From an uncultured delta proteobacterium (GTDB lineage Bacteria; Desulfobacterota; WTBG01; CAIYCZ01; CAIRTM01): 64,000 bases of DNA. The translations under genes and the position numbers were made by a program. Each line of letters begins with the position of its first letter. Positions within the stretch are counted from its first letter, which is position 1. Below the pieces are notes generated by a model. The model saw nothing but the letters and a program-made list of their open reading frames with translations, ran no database searches and was not told the origin of the DNA. Where the stretch lies: the NCBI GenBank assembly GCA_963804955.1, contig CAWDSQ010000020.1:1-64000 (forward strand), written 5' to 3'. Below are positions 15,645-37,320 of this stretch, piece by piece.

Positions 15645-16151
15645 ATGGTAAGCAAAGAGCTGAAATTTTGCCCCTATTGCGCCGGCAGGCTTGAAATCCG
15701 CATGGCTGAAGGCCGCATGCGGCATGTATGCACGGACTGTGACGAGGTGTATTATCAAAATCCCCTGCCTGCTGCCACTGCGCTTGTGGTCAACGATTGC
15801 GGTCAACTGCTGCTGGGAAAGCGGGCTGTGGAGCCGGCGCGAGGCCAATGGTGTCTGCCCGGCGGATTCGTTGAACTTGGCGAGAGTATGGAGCAGGCGG
15901 CGCTGCGGGAGCTTATGGAAGAAACCGGCCTTGCGGCCGACAGCGGCGCGTTTATCGGCTGTTTCTACCAGAACAGCCTGTACTACGGCGGTGTCATCAT
16001 TTTCGGTTATCGCATCGATGCGGTGCGCGGAGAGCCCATTGCCGGCGATGACATGCAGGAGCTTCAGTACTATTCTTTCGACCATTTGCCGCCGATCGCT
16101 TTTGAATCTCACCGCCGGCTGATCGATCTTTTCAAACAGCAGCTTGCCTGA
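15645..16151 (+). CDS. NUDIX hydrolase with N-terminal zinc ribbon
   Basis: CPYC...CTDC; Nudix box GGFVELGESMEQAALRELMEETGL. Confidence 0.93.
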   Translation: MVSKELKFCPYCAGRLEIRMAEGRMRHVCTDCDEVYYQNPLPAATALVVNDCGQLLLGKRAVEPARGQWCLPGGFVELGESMEQAALRELMEETGLAADSGAFIGCFYQNSLYYGGVIIFGYRIDAVRGEPIAGDDMQELQYYSFDHLPPIAFESHRRLIDLFKQQLA

Positions 16152-16874
16152 TCTATCTTTATACCCTGCAGGGTGGTGTGCCTGCTCATAATCCCTTCTG
16201 CTCACGGCCCGTCATAATGATGTTCGCAAGAATAATATTTTAATAAAATTAAAAAAAATTATATTAAAATATTATTTTAAATAAAAAAATAAATTTTCTT
16301 ACTTTGCAGAATTACCTGGATAGTGCTACAAAAAGAATGAAAGACAATTGCAGGAAAGCAGGCAGCAGACAGCATACAATCACTGTTACTACTATCGATA
16401 GAAATAATAAATAGCTGTGATTGCTTATATCATTCATTTCTTTTAAATGGTTTTTTATAAAATAAACCATATGTAAAATCCTCTCTCAGCCTTCTACTTA
16501 TAATATGTTTCAACAGGTTCAAGATTTCAATAGATATTATTTATCGTATCGTTTCAGGGTAATATCTATATTGTAACCGACAGCCTTGATGTACCGGTAA
16601 TTTTAAACTGTCCAATCAATGATTACATGCTGCTCTTAGAAATCGTATCGAACAATTTGGTGATAGCACGGATTTTTGCCGCATTTTTTTCTAAAGTATT
16701 AGTGGAAAAAGACTATAAGTTATAGGTGCCTTGCAACCTGAATATGAAAGATCAAAAATATTTTCTGGAAATATCACCAGTATTGCTTTATTATTTAATA
16801 TGTTATGCTTGATATCCTAAACTAAAATCTGAGGAACTATTGATCCTTAGGCGATGTGCCGAGGGACAAAGACC

Positions 16875-18155
16875 ATGTTCGCCTACTTCAGAAAAAAACA
16901 GGTCAGTCAAAAGAAGCAGATGCTCGAAGGAGTCTTCGCGCAGAACCTGAAGCTTGTCGGCAAAGCACCTGTCGAAAGGAATTCCTTCTTCACCGGCATG
17001 AACTGGTACCTCAGGCTGGCATTTTTGGTTTTTATCGGTATTTTTCTCTCCACTGATACCCGTGGTTCCCGCGTCAGTCAGAGCCCAGACATGTTCAGCG
17101 ACTTGCCGAGTCAATCAGTGCCCGGAGCCGGTGCTCAGGCCTCAGGGGTTGATGCTGCCGGTAATCCAATTTTTTCCGATATGCAGTTTCCTTCAGGAGC
17201 AAAAATTTCCTATCAGCAACCGAATGCTTCCAGCCAAACCCCTGAAGATAAAAAGCAGGTTAAGGAACTGCTGAACCTCATCAGCCAGAGCCTTGAGGAA
17301 AAGAAGCAGGTGCAGGTTACTGCTGCATCCCTTGAACGGAATTTCGAAGACAAAGCACATGTGCAGGAGTATGTGAACCTGCTGAGCCAGAGCCAGGTGC
17401 CCATCAAAAAAATGTTCGGCTTGAGCGTCAAAACCATAATCATCGACGCAGGCCACGGCGGCGATGATCCGGGCGCGATCGGCAAACTGGGTGTGAAGGA
17501 GAAGGACATCACACTGGATATCGCCCGCACCCTAAAGAAGCGCCTTGAGGCTGCCGGCTCATACCGGGTGCTGCTGACGCGGCAGGACGACAAATTTATA
17601 TCACTGAAGGCCCGCACAGTGCTGGCCAACAAAAGCGGTGCTGATCTGTTTATTTCAGTTCATGTCAATTTCGTGCCCAGCCCAACTCTCGACATCGTCG
17701 AGACATACTACTTCGGACCTTCAAAAAGCAATATCTCCATGCAGCTTGCTGAAAAAGAAAACGAGCTCTCGGACTTCAGCATGAGCGATTACAACCAGAT
17801 CATTAAGAAGCTGAGCAATACGATGAAGTTCCAGGAGTCGCGCTTATTTGCTCAGAGCATCCAGCAGAACCTCTACAAAAACATGCGCGCCGTAAGCGGC
17901 GAGGTCATGGATCATGGCATCAAGCGGGCGCCATTTGTGGTTCTTCTCGGGGCTGATATGCCGGGCGTGCTTGTAGAGGTTGCCTGCCTGAGTAATCATG
18001 ACCAGGAACAGCGACTCCGCGACCCTTCATACCGTGAGGATATCGCCACATATATTGAAAAAGGCATCATTCACTACCTAGACACAAGGAGCAGAAACCA
18101 TGACACAGAAAGAGCAGACCGGGACGTCGAGCGACACGCTTTTCGTCGGAATTGA
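16875..18155 (+). CDS. N-acetylmuramoyl-L-alanine amidase (Amidase_3), membrane-anchored
   Basis: IIDAGHGGDDPGA, EKDITL, FISVHVN, VLVEVACLSN; N-terminal TM segment. Confidence 0.92.
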   Translation: MFAYFRKKQVSQKKQMLEGVFAQNLKLVGKAPVERNSFFTGMNWYLRLAFLVFIGIFLSTDTRGSRVSQSPDMFSDLPSQSVPGAGAQASGVDAAGNPIFSDMQFPSGAKISYQQPNASSQTPEDKKQVKELLNLISQSLEEKKQVQVTAASLERNFEDKAHVQEYVNLLSQSQVPIKKMFGLSVKTIIIDAGHGGDDPGAIGKLGVKEKDITLDIARTLKKRLEAAGSYRVLLTRQDDKFISLKARTVLANKSGADLFISVHVNFVPSPTLDIVETYYFGPSKSNISMQLAEKENELSDFSMSDYNQIIKKLSNTMKFQESRLFAQSIQQNLYKNMRAVSGEVMDHGIKRAPFVVLLGADMPGVLVEVACLSNHDQEQRLRDPSYREDIATYIEKGIIHYLDTRSRNHDTERADRDVERHAFRRN

Positions 18156-19131
18156 CCTGGGTACATCCAGAAGCTCCATCTCCGCCAGCAATGGCAGCAC
18201 GGCGTGGATAGAGAGTTACGTGGGTTGGCCAAAGGACTTTATCTCCGCAAAAGTGCTGGGTAAACAAGTCATGTTCGGGGCCGAAGCCCTCGAGCACCGC
18301 CTCTCGCTTGAGATGTGCCGCCCTATGGAGCGCGGTGTTATCAAGGAAGGCATTGATCGCAACGAGGATGCCGTCAAGGAGATAATCAAGGAGCTCATAC
18401 GCCTGGTAAAGCCTGCGTCAGGGCAGAAGATAAAGGCAATTGTCGGCGTACCGGCAGACACCATGAAGGTCAATAAGCTTGCCATACGCAAGGCGGTTGC
18501 CGACTATGTGCATTCGATTATGGTCGTGAGCGAGCCCTTTGCCGTGGCCTACAGCATGGATTTGCTCGACAATGCCTTCATAATTGATATCGGAGCCGGC
18601 ACGGTGGACTTCTGCATCATGCACGGAACCATGCCCGATGAGAGCGACCAGAAAACCATTACCACGGCCGGGGACTATATAGATGATCAGCTTTTCAGCC
18701 TTATGACCGAGAAATACCCGCGCTCACGTTTTACGAAAAACATGGTGCGGCAGTTTAAGGAGCGTTTCAGCTTCGTCGGTGATGTCTCGGAAGAGATCAA
18801 GGTCGAGCTTCCCCTTGACGGCAAGCCAGCCGAGCATGATATCAAGATGGAGGTAAAACGAGCCTGCGAGAGCATACTGCCTGCAATTATTGACACGGCT
18901 GCGGATATGATATCCAGGTTCGACCCCGAGTTTCAGGCCAAGATAAAGAACAATATCGTTCTTGCAGGCGGCGGCAGCGGTATCAGAAATCTTGCCGCTC
19001 ATATCGCCCACGGGCTGAAGGATTACGGCCAGTGCACGGTTGTCAGTGTTGATGACCCGCTGTATGCCGGTTCAATCGGCGGCTTGAAGCTTGCGCAGGA
19101 CATGCCCAAAAACTACTGGGAAGAGCTGTAG
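18100..19131 (+). CDS. MamK-family actin-like protein
   Basis: LFVGIDLGTS, VGWPKD, VVSEPFAVAY, IIDIGAGTVDFC, KERFSFVG, NIVLAGGGS, C-terminal MPKNYWEEL; colinear with MamK rather than MreB. Confidence 0.88.
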   Translation: MTQKEQTGTSSDTLFVGIDLGTSRSSISASNGSTAWIESYVGWPKDFISAKVLGKQVMFGAEALEHRLSLEMCRPMERGVIKEGIDRNEDAVKEIIKELIRLVKPASGQKIKAIVGVPADTMKVNKLAIRKAVADYVHSIMVVSEPFAVAYSMDLLDNAFIIDIGAGTVDFCIMHGTMPDESDQKTITTAGDYIDDQLFSLMTEKYPRSRFTKNMVRQFKERFSFVGDVSEEIKVELPLDGKPAEHDIKMEVKRACESILPAIIDTAADMISRFDPEFQAKIKNNIVLAGGGSGIRNLAAHIAHGLKDYGQCTVVSVDDPLYAGSIGGLKLAQDMPKNYWEEL

Positions 19132-19281: not shown

Positions 19282-21781
19282 TTATCCAATTCCGGCCAGT
19301 TCAAACCGCCCGCGCCAGCGCTCAAGCAGCACCTGTCTGAGCATTTTATGTGCTCGGGTTTTTTCAGCTCAGGGTCGGCCTCGATGAGTGAAAATGCCGC
19401 TTCGCGGGCCTCGGTGAGGATTTTAATGTCACGTGCCAATATGGGCTACGCGAAAGTCGGGGATGCCTGACTGGCGGGTGCCGAGAAATTCGCCGGGACC
19501 GCGGATATTAAAATCTTCCTCGGCTATTTTAAAGCCGTCATTGGTCTTTACCATAACCTCAAGGCGCTGGCGGGCATCATCGGACTTGCTGTACTGGGCA
19601 AGAAGGATGCACATCGACTGAGTGGCGCCTCTGCCCACACGGCCCCTGAGCTGATGCAGCTGCGACAGGCCGAACCTTTCAGCATGTTCGATAATCATGA
19701 GAGAGGCATTGGGCACATCGATGCCGACCTCGATAACCGTTGTGGCAACCAGTATATTGATACCCCCTGATTTGAAATCCCGCATAATATCGTCTTTGTC
19801 CTTCTGCGACATTTTTCCATGTACCAGGCCCACCCGGTAGTCAGGGAATATATCCTGCTGGAGGTGCGAAGTCATGGTTGTCGCATCCTTGAGATCCATC
19901 TTATCCGACTCATCCACAAGCGGATAGACGATAAAGGCCTGGTTGCCTTTATCTAATGCCGTTCGCACGAGCCTGTAGACATCCTCCCGCTTATGTTCAT
20001 GAAACAGCCTCGTAACTATGGGTTTGCGGCCAGGCGGCAGTTCATCGATGATGGAAATATCAAGGTCGCCGTAGACGGTGAGCCCCAGCGTGCGCGGAAT
20101 GGGCGTTGCGGTCATGACGAGTATATCCGGCGATACCCCTTTCTTTTTGATAAGCGCCCGCTGCAGGACGCCGAAGCGGTGCTGCTCATCGATGACGGCC
20201 AGGCCGAGGCGGTGAAATTCAACCGCTTCCTGAATGAGAGCATGCGTCCCGATGGCAAGATGTGCGCTGCCGTCGCGCAGGGCGGCCAGGGCCTGGTCTC
20301 GGGCTGGCTTTGGCTGGCTGCTGGTCAGCAGAACTATGTTTATCGGGATTTTATCAGACAGGGCCTGAATCGTTTTAAAATGCTGCTCGGCAAGAATTTC
20401 TGTGGGGGCCATGAGAGCGCTTTGATAGCCGTTCCACACAGCCGCCATGGCGGCAATAAAGGCAACCACGGTTTTACCGCTGCCCACATCCCCCTGCACG
20501 AGGCGGTTCATGGGGCTGGGCTTTTTCATATCGTCAAGAATGCCTGTTAGAGCCTTTTGCTGGGCGCCGGTCAAACTGAAGGGCAGGGCGCTGATACTGC
20601 ATTCGAGCTTCTCCTGTGGAATCTCGAATGCAATGCCGGGTTCAAGCGCCATGCCGCGCTTGCGCAGGGCCAGCACAAGCTGGAGCATAAAAAATTCATC
20701 AAACACAATGCGACGGTGCCATGGCGTTGTGAAGTTCAATAAATCTTCAAACAGGTCGCTGTTTTCGGGATAATGAATGCGGGCAAAAGATTCTCCAAGC
20801 CCTGCAAGGCGGTACTGCGCCCTGAGCGAGTCAGGCAGATAATCGGGCAGGTCTGCGGGCATACTGTTCAACGGCCTGACGGGATATTTTATGAAGGACT
20901 TTCTGGCTGATACCCTCGGTAAGGGGGTAGACAGGTACTATGGAAAGATTTGCCGCAGGACTTTCCTCCTCCGCCAGAAGCTCAATTTCGGGGTGATGCA
21001 TCTCGATGCGGAACTTGAACTGTGTTGTCTGGCCGGCTACCAGTACGCTTTCCCCCTCGCAGTATTTTTTTTTGAGCATATGAGCATAAGGCATATTGAC
21101 ATTGAACCATTTTGCGCTGAGCACGCCGCTGCCGTCGGCAATGAGCAGGTCAAAAACACGGGTTCGCCCTGACAGATGACCAACGCGTGCGGTCAGTATC
21201 TTTCCGATGACCGTGGCATGCCGCCCCGGCGTAAGGTCGGAAATTTTTGAAATGCTGCGGCGGTCGATATAGGATCTCGGCACATGGTAGAGCACATCTT
21301 CAATGGTTCGGATATTTTTTCGCACAAGAGCTTCAGCTGTTTTTGGCCCCACACCTTTTATCTTTTCAACCGGTGTTGAAAGAAGCAGGATTGCGTCATG
21401 GATGGAGACGGCAGGTGTTTCTGACGGTTCGGCAGTTTCTGGGCCGGAAGCAGGAGGAATGGCTGGTTTCCCCAGGGCTGCATCCGGTGCTTGTAATTTT
21501 GAAAAGGCTGCAATGGTTGACAGGATCAGGTTTTTCTGCTGATCTTGCTGGAGAGTGTAGAAAGAGATAAACGCATTTTGCAGGGAAGTAAAAAAATTTT
21601 TAAGGACCGGTGTTTCTGCAAGCTCATACGCCCTGCCGGCAAGCTCGGGGATGAGCTCATTGAGCCCTTTGATCGTATGTAAATATGCGCAATCGTTTTT
21701 GGACGCAAAAAGCAGGGGCTTTTCAATTGCCTCCAGAATGCTTGCAAGGCTGCTGCCTGCTTGTGATGTCTGCGTAATCAT
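19282..21781 (-). CDS. recG: ATP-dependent DNA helicase RecG (frameshifts near 20860 and 19435)
   Basis: Wedge/OB domain, QGDVGSGKT, DEQHRFG, MTATPIPRT, QLHQLRGRVGRG, RGPGEFLGTRQSG; the C-terminus continues out of frame to TAA at 19282. Confidence 0.95.
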
Positions 21782-36373: not shown

Positions 36374-37183
36374 CTAGTTGATGAATTTTTCTCTGATTGA
36401 AACAGCGCCGGTAGGGCATTTCAGACAGCGGTAGCAGCGTATACAGCTTGTTGATTGGCAGGCATTGTTTTCATATGCCTTAATCTCAACAGGGCAATCC
36501 CGCAGGCAGGCATCGCAGTGTATGCATTTTTCATGGTCAACCTGCGGCCGAAGTATGCTAACTTTATTAAATAGGCCATAGATGGCTCCAAGCGGGCAGA
36601 CCGTACGGCAGAAGGGGCGTTTGCAGAGAACAAAAAGAATGATAAAGGCTGCAAGAATGCCAAGTTTAACATTAAACAGCATGCCGGTCATTTCCCTGAG
36701 GTCGGAATTAAGCGATGTGAGCGGAATGCCTGCCTCAAGCGTGCCTGCAGGGCAGAACTTGCAGAACCACGGCTCGCCTGTTATCCAGGCAACACCGAAG
36801 ACCACAACCACAAGAATCGCGTAGCGCAGCCATGTGAGTATCTGCGGGATATGCAGTTTGGGAGAAGGTATTTTATTCAGCAGGTCCTGCAGGAGCCCGA
36901 AGGGGCATGCCCAGCCGCAGACAATGCGCCCCGCGGCTGTGCCGATCATGCCGAGAAAACCGAGCACATAAAAGGGTATGTGGTAGGTGCCGTATGCCGT
37001 AAGCATTTGCAGTGCGCCCACAGGGCATGTGAACAGGGCCGACGGGCAGGAATGGCAGTTGAGGCCCGGGCATGGAGCAAGCTTGAAACTGCCCTGGTAG
37101 ATGCTGCGCAGGTAGAAGCCGTAGAAATAGCAGTTGTACAGCACCACACTTGCAAACTGAGATATGCGCTGCCAGGCTTTCAT
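36374..37183 (-). CDS. Membrane 4Fe-4S binding protein (NapH/MauN-like)
   Basis: CPGLNCHSCP, CGWACPFG, FCKFCPAG, FCRTVCPLG, CIHCDAC...CP, CIRCYRC. Confidence 0.9.
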   Translation of the reverse strand: MKAWQRISQFASVVLYNCYFYGFYLRSIYQGSFKLAPCPGLNCHSCPSALFTCPVGALQMLTAYGTYHIPFYVLGFLGMIGTAAGRIVCGWACPFGLLQDLLNKIPSPKLHIPQILTWLRYAILVVVVFGVAWITGEPWFCKFCPAGTLEAGIPLTSLNSDLREMTGMLFNVKLGILAAFIILFVLCKRPFCRTVCPLGAIYGLFNKVSILRPQVDHEKCIHCDACLRDCPVEIKAYENNACQSTSCIRCYRCLKCPTGAVSIREKFIN

Positions 37184-37185
37184 GC

Positions 37186-37320
37186 TTATCCTATCCCTAT
37201 GCAGCTCAGGCATACCACGATGGAATAGCTCATGATCATGTTGTGCTGCCCCATGATGATGCCGATGATAAATAAAGCTGCCGACAGTGCTGCAATAATG
37301 GCTGGCAGATGCTTTTTCAT
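37186..37320 (-). CDS. 44-aa membrane micro-protein with C-terminal CxxCIGIG (CD1871A-like); absent from ORF track
   Basis: MKKHLPAIIAALSAALFIIGIIMGQHNMIMSYSIVVCLSCIGIG*; the stop is 2 nt before the ATG of the 4Fe-4S gene. Confidence 0.85.
   Translation of the reverse strand: MKKHLPAIIAALSAALFIIGIIMGQHNMIMSYSIVVCLSCIGIG

Follow-up and report, generated by a model that had tools for sequence, protein, structure and literature searches.

Few bacterial actins have known jobs: MreB, FtsA, the ParM-type proteins and MamK. In the E. coli divisome, the loop that links FtsA, FtsN and AmiA/B/C brings together a cytoplasmic actin-fold protein, bitopic proteins whose cytoplasmic N-termini are short, self-inhibited amidases and a SPOR reader of the amidase product; the SPOR domain binds amidase-processed peptidoglycan. 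How wall hydrolases stay local is an open question. Here we analyze a locus at positions 16,875 to 19,131 (+ strand) of a 64,000-nucleotide stretch of DNA from an uncultured delta proteobacterium (contig CAWDSQ010000020.1; the whole stretch is called the window below), in which two overlapping open reading frames (ORFs) encode first an amidase and then a MamK-family actin. The closest worked example of a polymer tied to a hydrolase is BacA-LmdC. In this system, described for Hyphomonas neptunium and Rhodospirillum rubrum, the bactofilin BacA forms a polymer that recruits LmdC, a bitopic M23 peptidase whose N-terminal cytoplasmic tail binds the bactofilin with a KD of ~15 micromolar, and the two genes are neighbors in many species (eLife 2024, PMC10945521). 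Relatives of MamK that coexist with MreB have been described in bacteria without magnetosomes: saltatorellin, which forms filaments in E. coli (bioRxiv 10.1101/817700), and Bbp, which shares an operon with a Kelch-domain protein (PMC10580974).

The best explanation of our comparisons is that the overlapping pair would constitute the core of a conserved cytoskeleton-to-cell-wall module. With moderate confidence, we further propose that a filament of the actin docks the amidase tail and guides the placement of wall cleavage. This reading is favored because BacA-LmdC provides a worked example and because a SPOR partner, encoded next to the pair in most relatives, recalls the FtsA-FtsN-amidase loop. 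The features on which the argument turns are:

16875..18155, + strand: gene for a predicted bitopic N-acetylmuramoyl-L-alanine amidase, 426 amino acids (ORF, Pfam Amidase_3, NCBIfam)
16875..17000, + strand: cytoplasmic N-terminal tail of the amidase, residues 1-42 (conserved motif; topology predicted)
17001..17054, + strand: hydrophobic segment, residues 43-60, predicted membrane anchor (helix 44-61 in the AlphaFold2 [AF2] model)
17055..17429, + strand: periplasmic linker, residues 61-185, low-complexity and poorly conserved (alignment gaps; predicted topology)
17430..18089, + strand: Amidase_3 catalytic domain with an AmiA/B/C-type regulatory insert (alignment to solved amidases)
18086..18091, + strand: Shine-Dalgarno sequence AAGGAG of the actin gene, within the amidase gene (read from the sequence)
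18100..19131, + strand: gene for a MamK-family actin-like ATPase of an amidase-linked subfamily, 343 amino acids (NCBIfam, 5JYG alignment, tree)

An earlier inspection of this DNA, made from the letters and their translations alone (the sequence-only reading), had described a ribosome-binding site and an actin start lying inside the last 56 bp of an Amidase_3 gene. This arrangement is confirmed, with AAGGAG at 18086-18091 and the ATG at 18100; the amidase stop codon, TGA, occupies 18153-18155, giving an overlap of 56 bp, a length to which it is stretched by the longer C-terminus of this amidase. At the other end, the amidase ORF opens at an in-frame ATG at 16854, which would add 7 residues. 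We set the start at ATG 16875, as in the sequence-only reading, because the conserved N-terminus of 67 relatives begins there. At 51-54% GC, the two genes are uninformative as to transfer.

The actin is assigned to the MamK family by NCBIfam model NF040964, which it matches over positions 1-330 of 335 with 409.2 bits, a narrow margin above the cut-off of 400 (the genome-level search with this model scores the same protein at 411.2 bits); the BeeR and MreB models give 202.6 and 81.8 bits. Residues 5-343 align end to end with solved MamK (5JYG) at 288.9 bits, far higher than with BeeR 8R2N (136.9 bits) or MreB (43.7 bits). MamK motifs had been read along the whole protein, and they are seen in this alignment: GIDLGTS, GWPKD against GYPKD, VVSEPF, KERFSFVG against KEQFSFVG, and P.NYW against PPQYW. 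Among 28 aligned actins GIDLGTS, VSEPF, DIGAGT and GGGS, which we take to be nucleotide-binding and ATPase motifs, are invariant. The protein has no hydrophobic or amphipathic end and therefore would need adaptors to reach the membrane.

Phylogenetic placement was examined in a tree of 71 rows built with the IQ-TREE 'quick' method, in which several representatives sit on long branches and the deeper order is weakly supported. The 67 MamK-family rows split from the 4 MreB rows with support of 100, and the protein does not fall within MreB. The actin of the window falls in a clade with 18 other amidase-linked actins and one representative (support 98), and the 11 MamKs of magnetotactic taxa (Magnetananas, Magnetomorum, Desulfamplus, Magnetococcales, Magnetominusculus and a cluster from genome G049) form a separate clade (support 100) that is sister to Planctomycetota/Myxococcota rows (support 98). 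By this placement, the actin is not an MreB, and it is not a magnetosome MamK that has been displaced either. Clustering at 50% reduces the amidase-linked clade to one or two representatives among the 158 retrieved with E up to 1e-30; by this measure of divergence, the clade is compact and slow-evolving. Many other representatives of the family have 700-1,230 residues with the actin domain at the C-terminus (P0250, P0252, P0253, P0257, P0259-P0262, P0265, P0266, P0269), and appear to be fusions in which a large N-terminal region precedes that domain.

The genomic context was searched in the assembly to which the window belongs (G000; 36 contigs, 4.26 Mb, 87% complete), in which a profile search finds one MamK-family match. 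The phylum includes two genomes, G039 and G049, with magnetosome clusters in which MamK lies beside MamB/M-type transporters (~240 bits), a MamE-like protease and FeoB, and 34 ORFs taken from their MamK-bearing contigs served as queries for magnetosome genes. The hits in G000 were the actin of the window (38-46% identical), a generic CDF transporter (24-26%), HtrA, FeoB and a NapH-like protein, and within this 87%-complete assembly the 34 queries recovered no MamB/MamM-type transporter and no small magnetosome-specific protein. The description of the actin as an orphan therefore holds within the limits of the assembly: there is one MamK match and no island was found. The NapH-like hit is a NapH/MauN-like ferredoxin-type membrane protein encoded in the window at 36374-37213 (-), 43% identical to the NapH-like proteins of the G039 and G049 clusters.

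These data bear directly on the idea that the gene is a displaced or leftover magnetosome mamK. The protein does pass the NCBIfam MamK cut-off, and the phylum does have magnetotactic members in G039 and G049. Nonetheless, the actin belongs to its own clade, is 40-46% identical to magnetosome MamKs as against 68-94% to amidase-linked actins, and resides in an 87%-complete assembly in which no magnetosome genes were found; this explanation is already contradicted, and we give it almost no weight. A role as a replacement for MreB was also considered and rejected, since congeners that carry the pair also have a normal MreB. In G000 no MreB match exceeds 293 bits, whereas all four congeners examined, pair carriers included, reach ~538 bits; because all four have MreB, we read the gap as incomplete assembly. 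The suggestion that the module is separate from MreBCD is thus plausible from the congeners, although its own assembly shows no MreB.

The amidase has Amidase_3 (PF01520) as its sole Pfam domain (E 2.2e-48; 165 bits against a gathering score of 27), and no AMIN domain is reported. The match spreads over 212 residues for a 174-position model, and the CwlD model matches in two stretches. The best NCBIfam models are AmiA, CwlD and AmiC, all below their cut-offs, and the amidase equivalogs fall far under theirs: 123 for AmiA (cut-off 400), 113 for AmiC (700) and 101 for AmiB (532). The catalytic domain, including the insert, aligns throughout with AmiB 3NE8, AmiC 4BIN and AmiA 8C2O at ~98-100 bits. 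In 28 full-length amidases H194, E209, H263 and E368, presumably the zinc ligands and catalytic glutamate as in the AmiB and CwlV structures, are invariant, as is the insert motif Q320-E321-S322. Judged by its regulatory insert, the enzyme is of the AmiA/B/C type and presumably self-inhibited, although its N-terminus is different.

Ahead of this catalytic domain lies a short tail. Its motif is MLEGVFAQNLKLVGK in the window and ILRGVYEENL..LGK in most relatives, and the longer conserved N-terminal stretch reads M.S.F.RK.E.K.R..ILRGVYEENL..LGK in most relatives versus MFAYFRKKQVSQKKQMLEGVFAQNLKLVGK in the window. Across 28 sequences the tail keeps L17, N24 and L25 without exception, and G19 and V20 in at least 90%. 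Pairwise identity averages 0.52 over tail residues 1-30, 0.17 in the pre-membrane segment, 0.28 in the membrane segment, 0.26 in the linker and 0.66 in the catalytic domain. A single hydrophobic 17-mer stands at a fixed distance past the motif in all 67 motif-bearing amidases. The AF2 model (mean predicted local distance difference test score, pLDDT, 63) places helices at 2-27 and 44-61 and models the catalytic domain well; the linker, longer here than in most relatives, has pLDDT <50 over 61-122, indicating disorder. Apart from this tail, the window encodes no conserved cytoplasmic element together with the actin. We also considered whether the tail is a portable docking peptide attached to other domains. 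A search with the tail of locus L090 alone, covering 60 candidates in a 201-643 amino acid band, recovered 59 tail-bearing proteins, and all 59 carry Amidase_3 and nothing else; the idea was discarded.

A protein search with the actin returned upwards of 5,329 relatives; the 120 best are 68-94% identical to it. Named sources among these 120 are Nitrospirota, Thermodesulfovibrionales, Methylomirabilis and Thermodesulfobacteriota, and identity stays at ~70% across Nitrospirota, Methylomirabilis and Thermodesulfobacteriota. At 78 of 80 metagenome loci (actins 67-94% identical to that of the window), the gene directly 5' of the actin gene encodes an amidase; the other two (L056, L066) begin inside the actin gene. 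The same holds for 3/3 near-identical genome loci. Across the phylum, a homologue at E up to 1e-130 was found in 3 of 301 sampled genomes, and both of the other carriers have the overlapping amidase, so that conservation of the pairing, on which the sequence-only reading had made its proposal depend, is borne out in all three samples. At a looser threshold (E up to 1e-60), 7 of 61 relatives have a MamK-family match, and within the family to which the window belongs it occurs only in its own genus. This patchy distribution fits either transfer of a cassette or many losses. An upstream amidase is absent from all 21 genome loci with 42-49% identical actins (mostly Planctomycetota and Myxococcota) and from every magnetosome-type or coiled-coil-type MamK locus examined.

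The junction itself is conserved. Wherever both ORFs are present (79 loci), the stop codon of the amidase falls from 8 nt inside to 31 nt before the GIDLGT codons, and the actin begins 33-48 nt ahead of those codons; it follows that the genes overlap in 79/79. The other flanking genes vary by lineage and include ScpA, pyruvate phosphate dikinase, RibD, CysRS, a MATE transporter and a histidine kinase. Operon partners often share regulation alone, and it is conceivable that the two proteins are co-expressed without touching, with the actin performing an MreB-like or some other function while the amidase works on its own. Several features of the locus speak against this: the overlap is kept across deep divergence, the cytoplasmic tail is conserved with no evident role other than binding something cytoplasmic, and the flanks vary, yet the pair has stayed together on entering a phylum with so few sampled carriers. 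We consider co-expression without contact unlikely, and continue to favor docking of the amidase on the filament.

Two further observations concern distribution. The congeneric genome G003 keeps the pair in the same purL-purQ-NUDIX-pair-recG order, broken by frameshifts; purL, amidase and actin genes are all frameshifted (L007 / L123, G003:C38), a pattern more suggestive of systematic errors in the assembly than of a decaying module. Genomes G060 (L128:7907-11214) and G048 (L129:2029-4106), also of this phylum, have another orphan MamK module, with actins scoring 435 and 409 bits beside long coiled-coil, SMC-like proteins and with no amidase or magnetosome genes in the scanned stretch.

In most relatives the pair is joined by a third gene. 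At 57 of the 83 related loci it directly follows the actin gene (L040-L117, e.g. L040:7047-8354); 10 of the 26 loci that lack it have <700 bp past the actin gene. A domain scan of six third-gene products detected a SPOR domain at the C-terminus of every one and, in five, an N-terminal receiver domain scoring above threshold; the layout is pseudo-receiver, acidic low-complexity spacer, one membrane helix and SPOR domain. We call the receiver a pseudo-receiver because its phospho-acceptor Asp is replaced: in an alignment with three ordinary G000 receivers, 45 of 46 third-gene products have N, K, R or E in this column. A link between SPOR domains and amidases is described in PMC7822825. The third gene is not present in the window, in its congeners (L007 among them) or in the relatives L038 and L039. 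Some of the SPOR-less relatives have an ORF of ~90-100 codons with hydrophobic stretches, located after the actin gene or before the amidase gene (L065:6914-7216; 12 loci).

The nature of the third gene also helps to weigh a different use of the filament, the positioning of a cytoplasmic cargo such as an organelle, a storage granule or DNA, with the bitopic amidase serving mainly as an envelope anchor. MamK proper positions organelles, and an anchor bound to the wall would hold a filament in place; moreover, other non-magnetotactic MamK relatives have quite different partners, namely coiled-coil proteins in G060 and G048 and a Kelch protein in the case of Bbp (PMC10580974). Yet the neighbors of the pair include no conserved cargo gene, searches for gas-vesicle and magnetosome genes turned up none, the invariant catalytic residues and regulatory insert would be needless in a mere anchor, and the recurrent third gene is wall-directed. 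The gas-vesicle result is itself weak, as the Gas_vesicle search of G000 gave no match but was equally silent in all 14 control genomes. Overall, we regard cargo positioning as rather unlikely. The sequence-only reading had offered a filament-guided module for wall remodeling or organelle positioning; the first half is favored by the catalytic residues, the tail and the SPOR neighbor in 57/83 loci, and the second half is without support.

Filament-guided placement of the amidase would operate as follows. The MamK-family protein is expected, from its family membership and intact nucleotide-binding motifs, to polymerize with ATP in the cytoplasm. The amidase would be held in the inner membrane by its one N-terminal helix, with the catalytic domain in the periplasm and the conserved helix of ~30 residues facing the cytoplasm, where the filament would bind it. 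By gathering or placing amidase molecules along a line or at a site, the filament could confine the cutting of stem peptides from glycan strands to that place. In most relatives, the bitopic pseudo-receiver/SPOR protein would join the pair, its periplasmic SPOR domain reading the product of the amidase. Such a partner points to daughter-cell separation or some other local splitting of the wall as a candidate site, and the lineage of the window carries the two-gene core only. A septal site of action is a weaker sub-claim than filament-guided placement.

A number of observations weigh against this mechanism. Conserved gene order is by itself no proof of binding. The tail in the window is divergent, 32% identical to 23 distant tails over residues 1-30, and its AF2 helix at 2-27 is of moderate confidence (pLDDT ~57-62). 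No receiver-SPOR protein was found elsewhere in G000, and without a SPOR partner in the window the septal interpretation leans on relatives. G000 also has two further Amidase_3 loci, so the enzyme need not be the division amidase; by the same evidence, the possibility that it is the sole division amidase was ruled out. One of these loci (G000:C10:46051-46696, +) matches the model in two adjoining pieces (1-54 and 55-172) in different frames, possibly another frameshift.

A final point on that side concerns the hydrophobic segment. It is preceded by twin arginines in 24 of the 67 relatives, which leaves room for an additional role of the segment in Tat export. The Tat pathway exports AmiA and AmiC in E. 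coli, and Hsp70 chaperones have the same fold as actin. On this basis, the actin-fold ATPase could gate export, binding the N-terminus of the amidase precursor in the manner of a Tat proofreading chaperone and controlling release of the hydrolase. However, the protein of the window and the other 43 relatives have no such arginines, no signal-peptidase site is evident past the hydrophobic segment of the amidase, and the actin matches filament-forming MamK from end to end. We judge export gating very unlikely, and retain guidance of a membrane-held amidase by the filament as the preferred reading.

The surroundings of the pair are as follows:

15645-16151, + strand: NUDIX gene, 5' flank of the pair
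16152..16874, no strand assigned: AT-rich spacer, presumed promoter region of the pair (723 bp, 31.7% GC; window 50.6%)
19335..19359, + strand: terminator-like hairpin and T run, 204 nt past the actin stop (consensus scan)
19429-21781, - strand: recG, convergent 3' flank, split into two frames

The pair thus sits between a NUDIX gene and recG, as had been described, with 297 bp separating the actin gene from recG. The recG halves (316 residues with the wedge domain and 480 residues with the helicase domains) overlap at 20831-20871 (-) in different frames. In the congener L007 both parts share one frame, and the split in the window stems from a frameshift or from faulty assembly. The ~700-bp AT-rich leader of the sequence-only reading is real in length and composition: fewer than 34% GC is found in just 108 of 42,408 sampled 700-bp windows of the genome. 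The spacer is 71-84% identical in two congeners and is not repeated elsewhere in the genome; an Rfam search of it gave no match at E up to 0.1. It is not only a leader, since it holds a conserved opposite-strand ORF of 52 codons (16312-16470, -) encoding a small hydrophobic protein. This ORF is intact in both L006 (protein 94% identical) and L007 (protein 67% identical, where the regional DNA is only ~71% identical), and it is probably a genuine gene for a small membrane protein, oriented divergently to the amidase operon. One promoter-like site lies at 16766-16794, a frequency at chance level; across the region, promoter-like and terminator-like sites are no more frequent than in shuffles and constitute weak evidence.

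Taken together, these results connect a large, very conserved actin clade with a defined enzyme, and they yield a concrete hypothesis, that the tail peptide docks on the filament. The window adds a two-gene form of the system in a delta-proteobacterial genus, one whose amidase has a lengthened linker and reaches further at the C-terminus. An annotation as 'MamK family' is no evidence of magnetotaxis, a point that matters where mamK serves as a marker gene (bioRxiv 10.1101/682252). More broadly, and tentatively, since we put it somewhat short of an even chance, the amidase-linked MamK clade could be an unrecognized cytoskeletal system in which a filament is wired through the membrane to an amidase and mostly also to a SPOR reader. 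Such a system would be self-reinforcing, marking and splitting the wall at a chosen site. It would operate alongside FtsZ and MreB, its uncultured carriers would number in the thousands and span several phyla, and horizontal transfer would have brought it into this genus as a cassette of two genes.

How does this locus compare with known systems? Our literature search, whose coverage stopped short of subscription journals and bioRxiv supplements, found no paper describing a MamK-amidase pairing, and the word 'amidase' is absent from the actin papers that were searched for it. MamK of Magnetospirillum magneticum AMB-1 (5JYG, 5LJV, 5LJW) belongs to the same NCBIfam family, shares its motifs with the actin of the window and is likewise far from MreB. 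In contrast, the actin of the window forms part of a separate clade, has no magnetosome cluster in its 87%-complete assembly, and has as its constant partner an amidase rather than a MamJ- or Mca-type adaptor; without such a cluster, and outside the magnetotactic clade, it is not a MamK in the strict sense. Neither saltatorellin nor Bbp is reported with an amidase, unlike the actin of the window, and the Planctomycetota loci that we compared (42-49% identical), which may or may not be saltatorellins, have an amidase in 0 of 21 cases. Relative to AmiB of Bartonella henselae (3NE8), AmiC of E. coli (4BIN) and AmiA (8C2O), the enzyme has a predicted cytoplasmic tail and membrane helix in place of a cleaved signal, and no AMIN domain.

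The two closest parallels are found in systems that couple a cytoplasmic polymer or actin-fold protein to wall hydrolysis. Like the FtsA-FtsN-amidase loop, relatives of the locus encode all such component types, and do so in one operon; here, however, the actin is MamK-type, the amidase would itself be membrane-anchored, and the SPOR protein, missing in the window, has a pseudo-receiver. The BacA-LmdC pair differs in that its polymer is a bactofilin rather than a presumably ATP-dependent actin homologue, its hydrolase is an endopeptidase rather than an amidase, and its tail is a beta-hairpin where ours is a predicted helix. The design is nonetheless the same in both, with the polymer gene adjoining the hydrolase gene and the hydrolase composed of a conserved short N-terminal cytoplasmic tail (the docking site in LmdC), one membrane helix (here predicted) and a periplasmic catalytic domain.

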